Position numbers and translations under genes: made by a program. From the IMG/VR virus record IMGVR_UViG_3300047323_000675: a stretch of DNA of 64,000 bases, one strand, 5' to 3'. Origin of the DNA: a virus. A model generated the notes under the pieces. The model saw nothing but the letters and a program-made list of their open reading frames with translations. It ran no database searches and had not been told where the DNA came from. Below are positions 3,637 through 62,433 of this stretch, in pieces. Position 1 is the first letter of the stretch; each line of letters starts with the position of its first letter.

Positions 3637-4449
3637 TTAAACTTTATTTCTTCTATTAGGATTATTATTAATCATTAAATTTTGGTTTAGTTCATTATTA
3701 ACATCACTAAGCTCAAACCATTGTTCAATTTGAGGATTTGGATCATTAGCTAATATACTTTCAATATTTTTATTTTTAATTAATCCTTTTTCAAAAATTA
3801 AATATTTGATAATATCTAAAGTATTATTTGAACTAAATGCAGCAAAAAATATCATTTCATCATCCGAATAAATTGGAAGATTAGGAAATTTAGAATAAAA
3901 TTTTTCAATAACTTCAATATTGCCTATTCTTAGTGCATTAATAAATGCAGTTTCAGGATTTGAATGAGTCTTTAACTCCAAAGAATATAAAAGATAATCA
4001 ATTAATTCTTTATAATCATTTTTAACAGCATTATATAATGTTTTATCAGCTTGGGCATTGATATCAGCATGTTGTTTTAATTCAGGTGAAGTTAATAAAT
4101 ACTTTACAATTTCTATATTTCCTTTTGATGCGGCAAAAATCAAAGCATCATTATCATGAACGCTAACGGGAACATTCGTGGTTAAGCTAGAATCAGTTAA
4201 TAGATATCTAACAATATTTAGATGGTTAGATATACATGCATTGATTAGACCAGTTGTTAAGTGTGGATGAATTAAATGTTTATGATGAGTAGATTGAGTT
4301 AAATATCTAACTGTATCCATATCATTTTCACTACAAGCTAAAGCAAAAATAGAAAATAATTGAAATTTATCTTGTATATTTCCGAATTTTTTTTCCAAAT
4401 CATCCATTTTCTCTTTTATTCTATAATATTGTTCTTTTACATTATTCAT
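3637..4449 (-). CDS. ankyrin-repeat protein
   Basis: ALIFAASKGNIEIVKYLLTSPELKQHA; ends RRNKV. Confidence 0.9.
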   Translation of the reverse strand: MNNVKEQYYRIKEKMDDLEKKFGNIQDKFQLFSIFALACSENDMDTVRYLTQSTHHKHLIHPHLTTGLINACISNHLNIVRYLLTDSSLTTNVPVSVHDNDALIFAASKGNIEIVKYLLTSPELKQHADINAQADKTLYNAVKNDYKELIDYLLYSLELKTHSNPETAFINALRIGNIEVIEKFYSKFPNLPIYSDDEMIFFAAFSSNNTLDIIKYLIFEKGLIKNKNIESILANDPNPQIEQWFELSDVNNELNQNLMINNNPNRRNKV

Positions 4450-5357
4450 ATCTTAATTTTCTTTGCATTTAATTCATTAATAGATAAATCTTGATGAAGG
4501 TTGTGATTGAGATCTCTTAACTTAAACATATTTTCAACTACTTCGCGCTTATAAGTTAATCTGAATTCTTTTATAGCTTCAGTTTCATCAATATTTAAAT
4601 CAAAAATAAAATATTGGAGCATGTCTAAAGGTTTATCTTTTCTTGCTTGTATTATCAAAGTGCGAAAAATTTCATCACGATCATTATGAATATCAACATG
4701 TTTGGCAAGATTGGGTGAGTTAAATATATATTTAATCTGTTCTATATTATTTGAATAACAGCAACTATATATTACTCCTTCTAGCATAGCACTAATTACT
4801 GTATTAGAATATTTTGTTCCTAATTCGATAAAAGATTTAAAAAAATCAAAATCATTAGAAGAACTTGCGGCTCCTGCTGCTTTAGAAACATGATTTAAAA
4901 AACGATCATCTTTATCTTTAGAAACAGAAATTAAATACTCAAATAATTCTAGATTTTTACTTTGAACAGATAAAACTACTGGATTGTTATTTGCGGTATT
5001 AACAAATGGTATTTGAGGATGTTTTTCTAATTCAGGAGATTCAAATAGATATTTAACAATATGTAGATGTCCAGCTTCACAGGCAGAAGATAAGACAGAA
5101 TCGTAATCATCATTAATATCAAAATGATTCTTAGTTTCATGTGAAGTTAAAAGATACTTTACAAGTTCAATATTTCCACTAAAGCAAGCTGAAACTAATA
5201 CTCCATTGGTTCCGATAAAGTTAATATTATCTTGTATTTGTGGTTGAGCAAATAAAATTTTAACCTTTTCTAAGTCACCTTTACTTGCACACTCATATAG
5301 AATATCAGTTAATTCATAATTATCTTTTGCTGCTAGAGAGTCTATAAATTCTTTCAT
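4446..5357 (-). CDS. ankyrin-repeat protein
   Basis: ACFSGNIELVKYLLTS, ACEAGHLHIVKYL; ends KKIKI. Confidence 0.9.
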   Translation of the reverse strand: MKEFIDSLAAKDNYELTDILYECASKGDLEKVKILFAQPQIQDNINFIGTNGVLVSACFSGNIELVKYLLTSHETKNHFDINDDYDSVLSSACEAGHLHIVKYLFESPELEKHPQIPFVNTANNNPVVLSVQSKNLELFEYLISVSKDKDDRFLNHVSKAAGAASSSNDFDFFKSFIELGTKYSNTVISAMLEGVIYSCCYSNNIEQIKYIFNSPNLAKHVDIHNDRDEIFRTLIIQARKDKPLDMLQYFIFDLNIDETEAIKEFRLTYKREVVENMFKLRDLNHNLHQDLSINELNAKKIKI

Positions 5358-5845
5358 ATTTTAGTCTTTTTATTTATTGTTTTATTTTTATCAGATAAGT
5401 CATCTTTTAACAAATTATGTAATGTTCTTGTGTTAAAGAGTTGAGCAACAGTATTACGGTAATCTGTATTACTGTAATTTAAAAAATCTTCCATAAATTT
5501 AGTTTTTTCAATATTTAATTCTAGAATTAAGTATTGAATCATTGGTATATCCTCATTAATTCTTATTGCATCTAAAACAAATTTATTTTGAATATATGAG
5601 AGAGCATTTTCTCCTAAGTAATTATTTTCTACTAAATACTTAACAACATTTATATGACGGTTTTGAACTGCCTCAAGAATTGCACCAAATTTATTAAAAT
5701 CAGTAGCATTATATTTTAACTCAGTTGAGTTAAGTAAATAATCCAAAATTTCAATATCACCTTTAGCACAGTTATCTAAAAAAGCATCATTGATCTTTTC
5801 TTTACTTAAATTCTTAAATTGTTGATATAGTTTTGGATTAATCAT
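5354..5845 (-). CDS. ankyrin-repeat protein (short)
   Basis: CAKGDIEILDYLL, AVQNRHINVVKYLVE; ends KKTKI. Confidence 0.85.
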   Translation of the reverse strand: MINPKLYQQFKNLSKEKINDAFLDNCAKGDIEILDYLLNSTELKYNATDFNKFGAILEAVQNRHINVVKYLVENNYLGENALSYIQNKFVLDAIRINEDIPMIQYLILELNIEKTKFMEDFLNYSNTDYRNTVAQLFNTRTLHNLLKDDLSDKNKTINKKTKI

Positions 5846-6333
5846 AATTTTGAACTTTTTGATTTAGCATTATTAGTAACAAGCTTTTCTTTTAAGTCCA
5901 TCATAATATCTCGTGTTTCAAATAATTTTGATGCAATTTCATAATAATCTGAGTTAATATGCTTAAAATCATCAATATTTAAAAAAATTTTATCCATATT
6001 CATTTCAAATATAAAAAACTTTAGAATTTCTATATTTTGAGTTTGTATAATAGTTTCAAGTATAATATTATTGTCATGATATATATGAGCATGCTCTTTT
6101 AACTTGGAAGAAGTGCATAAGAATCTTACAATATCCAAATTTTGAGAACACAAAGCAGTTCGTAATGCATTATCTTCATCCATGTGGATATTTAGATGAT
6201 TTGATATATCATCATTAGTTAGAAAGTATTTAACTAAATCTAAATTTCCCCATCGACATGCACCAATTAAAGATTTTTGAAGTTCTTCCTTTGTATAATA
6301 GTGATACCTAGTATATATCTCATTTGTAATCAT
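5842..6333 (-). CDS. ankyrin-repeat protein (short)
   Basis: ACRWGNLDLVKYFLT; ends KSSKL. Confidence 0.85.
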   Translation of the reverse strand: MITNEIYTRYHYYTKEELQKSLIGACRWGNLDLVKYFLTNDDISNHLNIHMDEDNALRTALCSQNLDIVRFLCTSSKLKEHAHIYHDNNIILETIIQTQNIEILKFFIFEMNMDKIFLNIDDFKHINSDYYEIASKLFETRDIMMDLKEKLVTNNAKSKSSKL

Positions 6334-6404
6334 ATTTTTATACTAATTCTTTAACAATAGATTGATTAATCAATTTAGCTTATTAAATTTGAATTTTGGA
6401 TTAA

Positions 6405-17582: not shown

Positions 17583-17718
17583 ATGAATGAAACAGACAAC
17601 CATATTATTAGAGTAATGACTTCTCAAGAAGTTAAGGAGATTCGTTCAAAATTACAATTAAGCCAAAAAGATTTTTGCCATCGTTATGGCTTACCTATTG
17701 GAACATTTAGGAATTGGG
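17583..17718 (+). pseudogene. XRE-family HTH regulator (HigA/MqsA-like), 5' part, interrupted by IS
   Basis: Hand translation MNETDNHIIRVMTSQEVKEIRSKLQLSQKDFCHRYGLPIGTFRNW, broken at TGG G; joins in frame to 19637-19758. Confidence 0.85.
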
Positions 17719-17764
17719 TCTGAAACAGTTAGCATAAAATCTATTCATAATTGTTCAATAAATA

Positions 17765-17793
17765 TTGACTTATTTCATTATTTAAAGTATTCT
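17765..17793 (+). promoter_or_regulatory. sigma70-type promoter of tnpB
   Basis: TTGACT-17 nt-TATTCT, 23 nt upstream of the ATG at 17817. Confidence 0.6.
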
Positions 17794-17816
17794 AAGCTCA
17801 TGTTTTTTATTTAATA

Positions 17817-19601
17817 ATGCAAACTACTTTAACTGCTTCTCTAATTGATGATTCTCATGCTGATTTTATTAATCAGAAATTAGATCAATTTAATACTTTA
17901 TTTAATAAAACTAAAAGAAATCTTTATAAAGATATTATTAAATTCTATAGTCAAAATAATACCAATAAGCTTTCTACCTCAAAGATTAATCAATTAAAGT
18001 CTTCTTATCAAACTATTTTTTGTATTAATTCTAGACATTACAATTCTATTTTTAATGACCTTTTGGGCAATATTAATTCTATTCTTGAACTTAATAAAGA
18101 CTATATTGTTGACACTAAAGATAATATTACATCTTTGTCTAAATCATTAAAATCTAAACAATCTATTTTAGATAGTCTTGTTAAGAAAATGTCTGCAAAA
18201 AATTATATTGAGAATAATATTGATAAAACCAATAAGGATAAGTTAGTTAATAAAATTTTCTATCTTAAAAAAAGATTAAATAAAGCTAATAATAAACTAG
18301 TTAAATTATTAGATATTGAAAAATCGGGTAATCCCCATTTATGTTTTGGTTCTAAAAAGTTATTTAATCAACAATTCATGATTAATACTAAAAATAATTT
18401 AACTTCATTTAAATTCCAGGAGGATTGGAAGAAAGCTTGGATTGAATCTAGAAATAGAAATTTTATTTTTATTGGCAGTAAAGATGAAACAGCAGGTAAT
18501 TCTAACTGTCAAATAAAACATATTGAAAATGATATTTATCAGGTAACTGTTAATGTTGATCCTAAAGCTACAAAACATAAAGATAAATATATTACTTTTA
18601 ATATCAAAGTCTATAATGATAAAAATAATTATCTTTTAAATTCTATCAATAACAATTCAGAGAAAGATAAATCTAAACATCAAGCTTTAACTTATAGATT
18701 TTATAAATATAATGGTAAATATCAGGTATTTATTAGTTTAGATAAAGATAATCAACAGCCCAAGATTATTAGTCATAGATTATCTGGAGCTATTGGTATA
18801 GATATCAATTCAGATCATTTATCTGTTTCTGAAATTGATAGATTTGGTAATTTAAAGAAGACTTGGAATATTCAACTTAATCTTAAAGATAAAACTACTG
18901 AACAATCTTTAGATAATATTGCTTGTGCTGTGAAAGAAATTACAGATTATGTTGTTAAAGTAGGTAAACCAATAGTAATAGAAAAACTTAACTTTAATCA
19001 AAAGAAATCTGAATTAAAGTCAGGATTTAATAAAAAATATAATGTAATGTTATCAAGCTTCGCCTATCGTAAGATAATAGAGTTAATTAAAAGTAGATCA
19101 TTTGACAAAGGTATTGAGATTATTGAGGTTAATCCAGCTTACACTAGTAAAATAGGCAAATTTAAATATCAAAACCAATATAAATTAACAACCCATCAAG
19201 CAGCTAGCTTTGTCATAGCAAGAAGAGGTTTATTGTCTTATGAAAAATATAAAAATATCAGAACAACTAAAATAAATAAAGAAACAAAAATAAAAGCAGA
19301 AATTATAGAAAGAAAGCCTGTAACAGTAGTACATAAAGAAAAACCAATTTCTAACCGTAGGAGTAAATATTATCCTTTTGGTTTACCTGTAAGGAATAGT
19401 CAAAAACAAGATGGTATTTATTGGAAAGAAATTGAGCAGAATTATCTCAAAGCGAAAAAGCATAGAATCGTACTGAAAAGGAAGAAACTTATCCTTGGCA
19501 ATAATGGCAGTAAATTATTATCAAGAGAAACAACTGTAGTAGCTGATAACTCTGAGGTAGACCGTGACCTATCCACAAATCTATTATTTCAACCTTTTTA
19601 G
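17817..19601 (+). CDS. tnpB: TnpB-family RNA-guided nuclease-like protein, 594 aa
   Basis: RuvC-I GAIGIDIN, RuvC-II PIVIEKL, NVMLSSFAY, VNPAYTSK; RuvC-III position reads HQAASFVIARRG. Confidence 0.85.
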   Translation: MQTTLTASLIDDSHADFINQKLDQFNTLFNKTKRNLYKDIIKFYSQNNTNKLSTSKINQLKSSYQTIFCINSRHYNSIFNDLLGNINSILELNKDYIVDTKDNITSLSKSLKSKQSILDSLVKKMSAKNYIENNIDKTNKDKLVNKIFYLKKRLNKANNKLVKLLDIEKSGNPHLCFGSKKLFNQQFMINTKNNLTSFKFQEDWKKAWIESRNRNFIFIGSKDETAGNSNCQIKHIENDIYQVTVNVDPKATKHKDKYITFNIKVYNDKNNYLLNSINNNSEKDKSKHQALTYRFYKYNGKYQVFISLDKDNQQPKIISHRLSGAIGIDINSDHLSVSEIDRFGNLKKTWNIQLNLKDKTTEQSLDNIACAVKEITDYVVKVGKPIVIEKLNFNQKKSELKSGFNKKYNVMLSSFAYRKIIELIKSRSFDKGIEIIEVNPAYTSKIGKFKYQNQYKLTTHQAASFVIARRGLLSYEKYKNIRTTKINKETKIKAEIIERKPVTVVHKEKPISNRRSKYYPFGLPVRNSQKQDGIYWKEIEQNYLKAKKHRIVLKRKKLILGNNGSKLLSRETTVVADNSEVDRDLSTNLLFQPF

Positions 19602-19617
19602 GTTTTGAATAGATTTG
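19576..19617 (+). ncRNA. hairpin at IS right end, probable part of the omega/reRNA scaffold
   Basis: caaatctatt (19576-19585) pairs with aatagatttg (19608-19617), inner stem aacct/aggtt; TnpB guide scaffolds are encoded at element right ends. Confidence 0.5.
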
Positions 19618-19636
19618 ACTTTGGTTTTAAGAACGG

Positions 19637-19758
19637 AGCAGGGTAGAGTTTCTCCTGATATTGCTACTAGTTTATATTTATTTAAAATATATAAATCACC
19701 CATAGCAACAGCAAAAATGTTAAGGCTTGGATTAAAGTTTGTAATAATTAAATCTTAG
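19637..19758 (+). pseudogene. XRE-family HTH regulator, 3' part
   Basis: Translates (E)QGRVSPDIATSLYLFKIYKSPIATAKMLRLGLKFVIIKS*, a typical WEQGRxxP continuation. Confidence 0.85.
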
Positions 19759-61944: not shown

Positions 61945-62433
61945 ATGAAGAAAATATCAATTTTAAGCTTAATGTTAGCTGCAAATATGGCCTATGCTGT
62001 TGAAGATACAGCAACAATTAAAAGAGTTGAACCACAATATTCTACTGTAAATAAACCAGTTGAAGTTTGTAGAGAAGAAACTATTCAACCACAAGCTCAA
62101 CCAGAAAAAAGCTATGGTGGTGCTATTTTAGGTGGTCAAGTTGGTAAGGGCAATGGAAAAGTAGTCGCAAGTGCTGCTGGTGCTGTAGCAGGCGCATTAA
62201 TTGGTGACAATATAAGCAATAAAAATGCTGTAGCAAGTGGAAATATTCAATATGAGCCACAAGTGGTAAACCGCCAAGTTCGTCATTGCCATGTAGAAAA
62301 TAGATCTACTGAAGAGTTAACTGGCTACCGTGTTGATTATACATATAATGGTAAACCATATAGCTTTGTTTCTCAAGAAAAACCAGTCGGCTCAAAATTA
62401 AGAGTTAATGTAGATGTTCAGCCTATTTTATAA
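61945..62433 (+). CDS. YcfJ-like glycine zipper 2TM exported/outer-membrane protein
   Basis: Signal peptide; GGQVGKGNGKVVASAAGAVAGALIG; C-terminal GYRVDYTYNGK; strong SD. Confidence 0.85.
   Translation: MKKISILSLMLAANMAYAVEDTATIKRVEPQYSTVNKPVEVCREETIQPQAQPEKSYGGAILGGQVGKGNGKVVASAAGAVAGALIGDNISNKNAVASGNIQYEPQVVNRQVRHCHVENRSTEELTGYRVDYTYNGKPYSFVSQEKPVGSKLRVNVDVQPIL

Follow-up and report, generated by a model that had tools for sequence, protein, structure and literature searches.

The question raised by this locus is why a tnpB-like gene with no transposase beside it lies between two short open reading frames (ORFs), and how it came to be there. Within the window, as the whole 64-kb stretch analyzed here will be called, excision in silico of positions 17719-19636 joins 17583-17718 to 19637-19758 and rebuilds one 85-codon ORF (GTFRNW-EQGRVSP, with the hyphen marking the join), reproducing the original prediction of a restored 85-aa helix-turn-helix (HTH) gene. 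All features described below are on the plus strand. The 5' fragment (17583..17718) supplies 45 codons plus 1 nt and the 3' fragment (19637..19758) supplies 40 codons and the stop, as read from the ORF list, the join and Pfam. HTH matches to MqsA_antitoxin (6.8e-5), HTH_3 and HTH_31, all three under the Pfam cut-offs, extend across the junction at residue 39/40 (residues 6-58 of a 79-aa piece of the rebuilt ORF), and the gene is described here as XRE/MqsA-like. The left flank terminates in AATTGGG (17712-17718) and the element in GAACGG (19631-19636), so that GG is common to both junctions, as had been claimed, which leaves the exact boundary free to shift by 0-2 nt. Apart from this GG match there is neither a further target-site duplication nor a long terminal inverted repeat, which is the pattern of IS607 insertions. 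The best explanation, which we consider about 75% probable as a whole, is that 17719-19636 is a 1.9-kb non-autonomous IS607-derived element made up of a left end, tnpB and a right end, without tnpA.

The termini carry the first part of the case. A left end of 98 bp (17719..17816) starts with TCTGAAACAG and is joined straight to tnpB with no intervening tnpA; it is homologous to the left ends of related elements L086, L088, L107, L110, L006, L007, L113 and L114, where T.....[A/G]CAG is followed by the AAATCTATTCA motif. In the window that motif occupies 17737..17747 and its exact reverse complement 19606-19616, each occurring once in the 64 kb and forming an inverted 11-nt pair about 19 nt inward of each element end. 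The subterminal inverted motifs noticed originally are thereby confirmed, as unique in the window and as kept in relatives. Of 20,000 shuffled versions of the element, 101 produced an inverted match of 11 exact nt between their two 60-nt ends. The motif is probably a TnpA binding site. The right-end hairpin was likewise recovered: AAATCTATT ... AATAGATTT (19576..19617), an inverted pair of the end motif, pairs 19576-19585 with 19608-19617 and has an inner AACC/GGTT stem. Because L114, which encodes an unrelated TnpB, ends in an equivalent inverted motif pair, the terminal hairpin probably doubles as a TnpA site or has that as its main role, and its helix may serve TnpA instead of the RNA. Between the left-end motif and tnpB a consensus scan picked out a promoter-like TTGACT-17-TATTCT (17765..17793), not significant alone; TTGACC/TTGACA-17-TATTAT occupies the equivalent position in L086 and L088.

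The absence of tnpA, also part of the original prediction, was upheld: tblastn with two IS607 transposases as queries found none in the element or in the 64-kb window, and the best 120 TnpA matches included none encoded on the 2,230,803-bp contig to which the window belongs. Given that no serine-recombinase TnpA was found, the window copy is a non-autonomous derivative and not a complete IS607 element. Its parentage is legible from its relatives. Two Chlamydiae genomes hold multi-copy elements of 2.29 kb in which a MerR-HTH plus resolvase TnpA, scoring 193.7 bits against NCBIfam transpos_IS607 (cut-off 110), adjoins a homologue of the 594-aa protein encoded by the window element. A TnpA is encoded in L015, in L040 and, as P0137, in L114 (NF033518, 165-194 bits, cut-off 110), and tnpA remnants lie upstream of tnpB in L113, L007, L009, L109 and L111, whose tnpB products are 53-64% identical to the window TnpB. 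Throughout this AT-rich subfamily tnpA is decaying and tnpB is intact. The most instructive relative is L114, an IS607 element with intact tnpA and tnpB in a 2.2-Mb sister genome, which shares the end motifs of the window element and whose unrelated TnpB has the canonical RuvC-III motif DINAACNHI. Following GGG, its left end reads TTACTTGCAG...AAACTCTATTCA, the AAATCTATTCA motif being present with one mismatch, and its right end reads AAATCTATT...TGAATAGATTTGACTTTG...AACGG, so that the window termini are shared with an element that carries its cognate TnpA. IS607 transposases beside relatives, matching ends, upstream tnpA decay and published precedent together support the IS607-like affiliation originally proposed.

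The precise boundaries could be compared in two elements 80% identical to that of the window (L086 and L088), in several relatives at 55-65% identity and in the multi-copy full IS607 elements of Chlamydiae; the viral contigs searched yielded distant relatives only (25-45% identity), unsuitable for end comparison. [T/A]GGG precedes nine of nine left ends of relatives, and NCGG closes 11 related elements, a count that includes the mini-element of L006 and L114. The exceptions are paralogue P0014 and relative L110, where the right end is CGA. At L086 and L088 the left junction follows ATTGGG and the right junction is [T/G]CGG before A, and their removal in silico restores ORFs of 217 and 154 aa; removal of L107 restores a 340-aa ankyrin ORF. 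GG is found at both junctions of these three elements, of L113 and L114, and of the Chlamydiae multi-copy sets, and sequence conservation among relatives ends exactly past CGG at the right end. This comparison, which had been put forward as a check on the boundaries, agrees with them and establishes both the ends and the target motif. The mini-element of L006 was also considered as a tRNA-gene insertion, a candidate rejected when its removal restored no tRNA gene. A special rule of insertion after a Trp codon with the host gene co-oriented was rejected too, as TTGGG is common in the window (n=49, with 14 of 24 coding-strand sites in Trp phase) and L107 lies in the opposite orientation to the gene that it interrupts. 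A search for the empty allele in relatives, the other check suggested, found none by any of three routes: a database look-up with the neighboring 158-aa gene and the window TnpB gave no record, a metagenome scan with the HTH N-terminal fragment gave one distant match (an unrelated 357-aa protein sharing the HTH), and the rebuilt HTH protein matched, in a set of 5.8 billion proteins, only its own 46-aa fragment. No near-identical copy of the window element is known, and nothing therefore points to a recent transposition.

The gene carried between these ends (17817..19601) encodes a TnpB-like protein of 594 aa with RuvC residues D329, E389 and H460, no zinc finger and a tail that is disordered over residues 557-594. 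It contains the NCBIfam TIGR01766 domain (1.5e-11, 44.6 bits, cut-off 32); the match to NF040570 guided_TnpB is partial, covering residues 354-458 only at 48.4 bits (cut-off 100), and that to Pfam TNB is also under its cut-off. A sequence-profile search against solved structures returned marginal matches only (E 0.018), and the fold relationship is therefore taken from Foldseek, which matched the AF2 model (pLDDT 85.3, pTM 0.72, the tail again disordered) with probability 1.0 to Cas12k, Cas12f, Fanzor2, ISDra2 TnpB and ISFba1 TnpB over some 520-650 alignment columns, or most to all of the protein. On this model the protein has the Cas12/TnpB fold, with WED, REC and split RuvC. It departs from the canonical D-E-D triad and C4 zinc finger in that H460 replaces Asp, a correspondence judged by motif position and the secondary structure of the model, not by residue-level superposition, and in that it has no CxxC pairs (NPAYTSKIGKFKYQNQYKLTTHQAAS). 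Across 53 sequences D329, E389 and H460 do not vary, and dN/dS values of 0.17-0.29 indicate that tnpB is under purifying selection. Loss of the C4 zinc finger and a conserved His for the RuvC-III Asp are the two hallmarks of the RIIIr-4 clade stated by Altae-Tran et al. (2023, PNAS, PMC10691335), and by both of these the window TnpB, its His replacement likewise conserved, matches the RIIIr-4 type. Conservation of the rearranged site is taken by those authors to imply retained activity; IS607-type ends, a WGGG target and right-end RNA structure, as found here, are not spelled out in the text consulted. In the literature consulted RII-r5 is the only rearranged clade named as cleaving dsDNA, and no report of RNA-guided cleavage by RIIIr-4 was found.

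Downstream, and overlapping the last 56 codons of tnpB, about 205 nt of structured right end (19432..19636) form a candidate omegaRNA scaffold. RNAalifold and pair counts give helices at 19437-19446/19545-19554, 19451-19453/19542-19544 and 19555-19560/19565-19570, followed by the terminal hairpin described above. Over the RNAalifold alignment 29 pairs were counted, with 95% of cells paired and 10-13 pairs showing compensatory change; none of 500 shuffles scored as high and slid controls were paired to only 27-43%. The single window sequence folds no more stably than its shuffles (z-score -0.89), and the case for structure therefore rests on covariation. A covariance model, R1, scores 227 bits at 19432-19636 and finds no further copy in the window; because it missed the right ends of relatives under about 40% protein identity, the RNA structure applies to the close subfamily only. 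Synonymous change is depressed over the overlap, dS being 2.0-4.7 times lower in codons 520-594, and the disordered protein tail (residues 557-594) is counted in favor of the RNA as well. Covariation, slid controls, R1 and dS describe a structured region that starts inside the 3' part of tnpB and stops where the transposon does, and the covarying multi-helix right end with its depressed dS fits a candidate guide-RNA scaffold.

Tested IS607 systems, backed by this covarying structure, are the grounds on which a TAM and a guide can be assigned. The TAM would be TTGGG/WGGG and the guide the 20 nt of right flank at 19637..19656 (AGCAGGGTAGAGTTTCTCCT), which would equally be the target in the empty allele; both assignments are supported by analogy, and the second also by the stop of conservation past CGG. 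The original suggestion of a TAM near TTGGG/TGGG with a right-flank guide is therefore strengthened by the tested TAMs TGGG and GGG, the [T/A]GGG left ends and the covariation, and the Clostridium TGGG TAM and the GG core that it named are both given in 10.1101/2023.11.20.567912. In the proposed sequence of events, a serine-recombinase TnpA would have crossed over at GG inside TTGGG (17714..17718), at a Trp codon of the small HTH gene, leaving one copy of the crossover dinucleotide as the last GG of this presumed target and TAM and the second as the GG of the right terminus ACGG (19633..19636). Transcription past the right end would yield a predicted RNA of scaffold plus AGCAGGGTAGAGTTTCTCCT, and TnpB with this RNA would recognize the empty site once its halves are rejoined (TTGGG plus AGCAGGGTAGAGTTTCTCCT) and cleave it. 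The occupied site would be spared, as the right end is ACGG, in which C at -3 sets the terminus apart from the TAM. Homing or retention of this kind has been shown experimentally for other IS607 TnpBs, and the proposed TAM, guide and protective C echo the tested systems CboIStron and ISXfa1 described below. For the window element itself, synthesis of the RNA, activity of the nuclease and continued mobility, including the mobilization in trans originally suggested, are predictions.

The closest tested system is CboIStron of Clostridium botulinum, a member of the IS607 family that encodes TnpA(S), TnpB and an omegaRNA and for which the TAM is TGGG, the scaffold end UCGG and the core GG (Zedaveinyte et al., 10.1101/2023.11.20.567912). 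It resembles the window element in the GG core at both junctions, in a G-rich target that doubles as the TAM, in an NCGG right or scaffold end whose C at -3 would keep the occupied site from being cut (TCGG versus TGGG there), and in a right-flank guide by which TnpB targets the rejoined donor site, tested there and read from sequence here. In contrast, the window element has neither group I intron nor tnpA, and its TnpB, at 594 aa with D-E-H and no zinc finger, is of another clade. ISXfa1, an IS607 element of Xylella fastidiosa, has a GGG TAM, close to the WGGG proposed here, a GG crossover and, at its right end, an RNA of about 150 nt that has several stem-loops and enters the flank (Yoon et al. 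2023, PMC10711439), comparable to the multi-helix candidate scaffold of the window; its TnpB differs in having a zinc finger as well as a D-E-D triad whose Glu is relocated, where the window TnpB has a RuvC-III His and no zinc finger. Elements with tnpB and no transposase are a recognized architecture in PMC10691335. The window element shares with IS1341-type elements of the IS200/IS605/IS607 superfamily a lone tnpB between transposon ends, and differs in that its parent can be named from IS607 ends and from tnpA remnants in relatives.

Several other accounts of the locus deserve consideration. It is very improbable that there was no insertion, and that unrelated small ORFs flanking tnpB join in frame by chance: the rebuilt protein has no homologue and its Pfam scores fall under the cut-offs, as this would predict, but several HTH models span the junction, the same boundaries restore ORFs at three other insertions, and the conservation of relatives stops exactly at the ends of the window element. 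Equally hard to credit is an element of IS200/IS605 type, moved as ssDNA by a Y1 (HUH) TnpA and inserted 3' of TTGGG with the shared GG a coincidence. It is usual to class TnpB-only elements under IS200/IS605, and a right-end hairpin is present; nevertheless, the transposases found beside relatives are all serine recombinases of the IS607 model, and GG recurs at both junctions in the copies compared. Least credible of all is an IStron, a group I intron fused to the insertion sequence. Although the element is co-oriented with its host gene in the window and at L086 and L088, and the closest tested system is itself an IStron, L107 is antisense to the gene that it splits, and the reading was rejected as no Rfam family, not even a group I intron, matched the element, whether at the gathering threshold or at E<=1.

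An unlikely alternative that merits greater weight than these is that the window copy has been left behind as a relic or has been exapted, immobile for want of a cognate TnpA, its TnpB and RNA either not yet decayed or turned to another role such as TldR-like RNA-guided binding and repression or altered D-E-H chemistry. The failure to find tnpA in the window, or a contig-encoded TnpA among the best 120 matches, is in keeping with this, as are the decay of tnpA beside intact tnpB across the subfamily, the retention of P0014 at a single locus across 38 collection blocks with a CGA right end like that of L110, the RuvC-III change from Asp to His, and the many exapted TnpBs described in PMC10691335. 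Against it, the window copy retains both ends, its end motifs and its GG cores, and the D, E and H residues are invariant, not eroded. In both respects it differs from a TldR-type exapted TnpB, which would have lost its transposon ends and have an eroded RuvC site. The predicted guide, moreover, would match only the flank of the element itself, and the insertion destroyed a gene instead of adjoining one to regulate. The preferred reading remains a non-autonomous IS607-derived element. It is a routine example of a familiar type, with ends that are unusually legible, and it leaves knowledge of IS607 and TnpB unchanged.

What the locus does offer is a site at which target, crossover dinucleotide, TAM, guide and self-protecting mismatch can all be read from the sequence, with independent sister insertions in agreement, for a TnpB from a large, catalytically rearranged clade; a defined scaffold, WGGG TAM and guide make a cleavage test straightforward. 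One broader and tentative reading, to which we give somewhat less than an even chance, is that zinc-finger-less D-E-H (RIIIr-4) TnpBs would be working RNA-guided nucleases with a WGGG TAM set by the IS607 serine recombinase, and that the module of nuclease and guide RNA would be exchangeable cargo. The latter part would see the TnpA and end system of one lineage, with AAATCTATTCA motifs and a terminus in ACGG, associated either with an RIIIr-4-type TnpB (the window, L086, L088, L107 and L113) or with an unrelated one (L114). If this were true, the four gene-splitting insertions would be natural pairs of TAM and guide with which the activity of the clade could be tested for the first time. For the host, the consequence of insertion is the knockout of an orphan HTH regulator, and the surroundings of the split gene are a 64-kb array of ankyrin-like genes.

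It is clear that the tnpB element at 17719-19636 interrupts a small HTH gene, an observation that is confirmed, and the interpretation originally placed on it is, overall, supported. The ORF at 17583-17723 runs to a stop codon just within the insert, with the second gene fragment at 19637-19758 in the ORF list, and excision restores the 85-aa HTH ORF that had been predicted, joining 17583-17718 to 19637-19758 as a single 85-codon frame (...GTFRNW-EQGRVSP..., hyphen at the junction). In a 79-aa piece of the rebuilt protein this junction is spanned by alignments to Pfam MqsA_antitoxin (6.8e-5), HTH_3 and HTH_31, each under the Pfam curated cut-off. Among proteins of 43-139 aa with common 5-residue words in a 5.8-billion-protein set, the only homologue of the rebuilt protein was its own fragment, and look-ups, an HTH-fragment search and a rebuilt-protein search found no empty allele. 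Two relatives occupying different sites in one metagenome, L086 and L088, match the window element at ~80% DNA identity along its full extent and no further, and their removal restores ORFs of 217 aa and 154 aa, respectively; once another relative, L107, is removed, an ankyrin ORF of 340 aa is restored, lying on the opposite strand. A chance in-frame join is contradicted by these three sister insertions. The ORF restored at L086 (L086:2647-2902 plus 4814-5151) has the C-terminus ...SKKLKI.

With TTGGG closing the left flank and ACGG closing the insert, GG is common to both junctions, as had been proposed; L086 is preceded by ATTGGG and ends TCGG before an A, and L088 is preceded by ATTGGG and ends GCGG before an A. 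The 11-nt subterminal inverted motifs are likewise present, AAATCTATTCA at 17737-17747 and its reverse complement at 19606-19616, each once in the 64-kb window; shuffling gave an exact 11-nt inverted pair between the 60 nt at either terminus in 101 of 20,000 trials. Within the subfamily, nine left ends are preceded by [T/A]GGG, all starting T.....[A/G]CAG and continuing to the AAATCTATTCA motif, and 11 right ends terminate TTTGA..TTT.AA.A.CGG, the point at which similarity ceases. Since the ends of the relatives agree and similarity stops there, the boundaries in the original prediction are right to the base, save for the inherent 2-nt ambiguity of the GG. Every complete right end among the relatives has C at position -3, where every left flank has G. 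Two relatives terminate ...ACGA and not ...ACGG (L004:4750-4752 and L110:3109-3111), and have therefore lost the core dinucleotide; these copies may be immobilised, and one of the two, the paralogue P0014, is retained at one and the same locus across 38 blocks of the assembly collection.

The lack of tnpA was borne out by tblastn, in which two IS607 transposases found no match in the 64-kb window. Two Chlamydiae genomes carry distant relatives (~33% identity), elements of 2.29 kb in multiple copies whose first gene encodes a 203-aa MerR-HTH plus resolvase protein, scoring 193.7 bits against the NCBIfam IS607 transposase model (cut-off 110); identity between copies is bounded by (A/G)GGG before T...AAC.G on the left and by ...GAGCGG on the right, and their flanks share nothing. 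Five relatives with TnpBs 53-64% identical (L113, L007, L009, L109 and L111) carry tnpA fragments or a frameshifted tnpA directly upstream of tnpB, and in the window element, L086, L088, L107 and L110 a left end of ~100 bp is joined straight to tnpB. These data support the view that the window element is an IS607 derivative of the tnpB-only kind. Every transposase associated with the relatives contradicts a Y1-type IS605 element, and the lack of an Rfam match in the element contradicts an IStron. L113:1761-2440 offers a snapshot of a decaying tnpA beside an intact tnpB, with tnpA in at least three frames (MerR-HTH, catalytic-domain and C-terminal LYGKRSHKNK) upstream of a 63%-identical tnpB.

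The window's own 2,230,803-bp contig has no protein among the best 120 matches to the L113 tnpA remnant; among the matches listed is P0137, an intact 199-aa IS607 transposase from a sister genome, on a contig of 2,217,227 bp. It is the TnpA of L114, where 3938-6403 is a complete 2,466-bp IS607 flanked by TAGGG on the left, closing ...AACGG on the right, and bearing the end motifs of the window element. BLAST finds no significant similarity between the window TnpB and that of L114 (560 aa, with the canonical RuvC-III motif DINAACNHI). Judged from sequence, a compatible helper TnpA is present in the lineage, seen in the sister genome, because L114 is a complete IS607 with the same end motifs; and because these motifs and ...ACGG accompany an unrelated TnpB there, one TnpA and end system appears to carry two different TnpB/guide-RNA modules. 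It is possible that the window element is a stranded or exapted copy, the main rival reading, which differs from the best explanation in present-day activity alone; no near-identical second copy of the element is known.

Within this tnpB-only IS607 derivative, tnpB has a dN/dS of 0.17-0.29 against five relatives and is therefore under purifying selection. Among family models its 594-aa product fits TIGR01766 alone ('TnpB-related', 44.6 bits, cut-off 32), besides a partial match to guided_TnpB (48 bits, cut-off 100). Relatives of 480-620 aa number more than 1,400; D329, E389, H460 and R469 are invariant across alignments of 20 and 53 of them, and NPAYTS is separated from the last RuvC helix by 15 residues without cysteine pairs. 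The AlphaFold model (pLDDT 85, pTM 0.72) is confident except at residues 557-594, with Foldseek probability 1.0 to Cas12k, Cas12f, Fanzor2 and ISDra2/ISFba1 TnpB in alignments over most or all of the length. Altae-Tran et al. 2023 (PMC10691335) describe RIIIr-4 as a major TnpB clade that lacks the C4 zinc finger and has His in place of the RuvC-III Asp, and the window TnpB matches both hallmarks exactly, which supports its assignment to this clade. Conservation in RIIIr-4 was taken by those authors to imply activity; a literature search found RIIIr-4 named in no other paper and no reported activity for it, and the sole rearranged clade that the text of Nety et al. 2023 (PMC10278001) names as active in dsDNA cleavage is RII-r5. 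The element is of value as a well-defined test case for RIIIr-4, with predicted scaffold, TAM and guide.

The right-end hairpin of the original prediction recurs in a four-helix consensus structure obtained by aligning the final 260 nt from ten elements: helix 1 (19437-19446 with 19545-19554), helix 2 (19451-19453 with 19542-19544), helix 3 (19555-19560 with 19565-19570) and helix 4, the terminal hairpin (19576-19585 with 19608-19617). Standard pairs fill 95% of 290 pair cells, with compensatory changes in 10 pairs, a level reached by none of 500 column shuffles, and pairing falls to 27-43% when partners are slid 1-3 columns; with a tighter alignment an inner stem also appears, AACC/GGTT or GCCA/TGGC depending on the element. 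Synonymous divergence is 2.0-4.7x lower in codons 520-594 than in codons 1-500, and the structured 3' region of tnpB encodes a disordered protein tail (AlphaFold model, residues 557-594). A covariance model from these sequences finds a single copy in the window, and also matches the right ends of L004 and L110 as well as a mini-element at L006 without tnpB. The terminal hairpin consists of the end motif as an inverted pair, and because the same pair closes L114, with its unrelated TnpB, this helix may serve TnpA binding as much as RNA.

In the IS607 systems tested so far, crossover by TnpA(S) is at GG, with TGGG preferred, the scaffold terminates ...UCGG with the right flank as guide, and the right-end C at -3 blocks self-cleavage (10.1101/2023.11.20.567912; PMC10711439). 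The TnpB TAM is the TnpA target, GGG in ISXfa1 of Xylella fastidiosa (PMC10711439) and, as originally noted for a Clostridium IS607 TnpB, TGGG in CboIStron of C. botulinum (10.1101/2023.11.20.567912). Every sequence feature of this scheme is present in the window: a left-flank TTGGG, a right terminus of ...ACGG with C at -3, and a structured RNA region running to the boundary. By this precedent the TAM and target of the window element would be TTGGG followed by AGCAGGGTAGAGTTTCTCCT at the rejoined site.

The L006 mini-element (L006:4189-4544, 356 bp) is MITE-like, has a full element 53 bp upstream of it and scores 40 bits with the right-end RNA model; TAGGG precedes its left end (TTATTAACAG...AAATCTATTCA), and its right end is ...ATACGG. 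Sequences to the right of both right ends (L006:4136-4160 and 4545-4572; GGGTTCAAGTCC and GCGGTTTGATTCCGC) resemble tRNA T-arm plus acceptor 3' halves, and ARAGORN found no tRNA there with the mini-element kept or removed. In window 1-64000 there were no tRNA or Rfam matches. The rebuilt HTH is an orphan regulator, no toxin partner being seen, and is the only further plus-strand gene near the element. The window is otherwise one array of ~80 minus-strand ORFs (158-516 aa), the exceptions being the element and a plus-strand ORF at 61945-62433. The ~10 array ORFs that were read in the surroundings of the element belong to ankyrin-like paralogues with KYLLTSPELKEHADIH repeats; many array ORFs overlap via ATGA stop-start, and window G+C is 25.7%.
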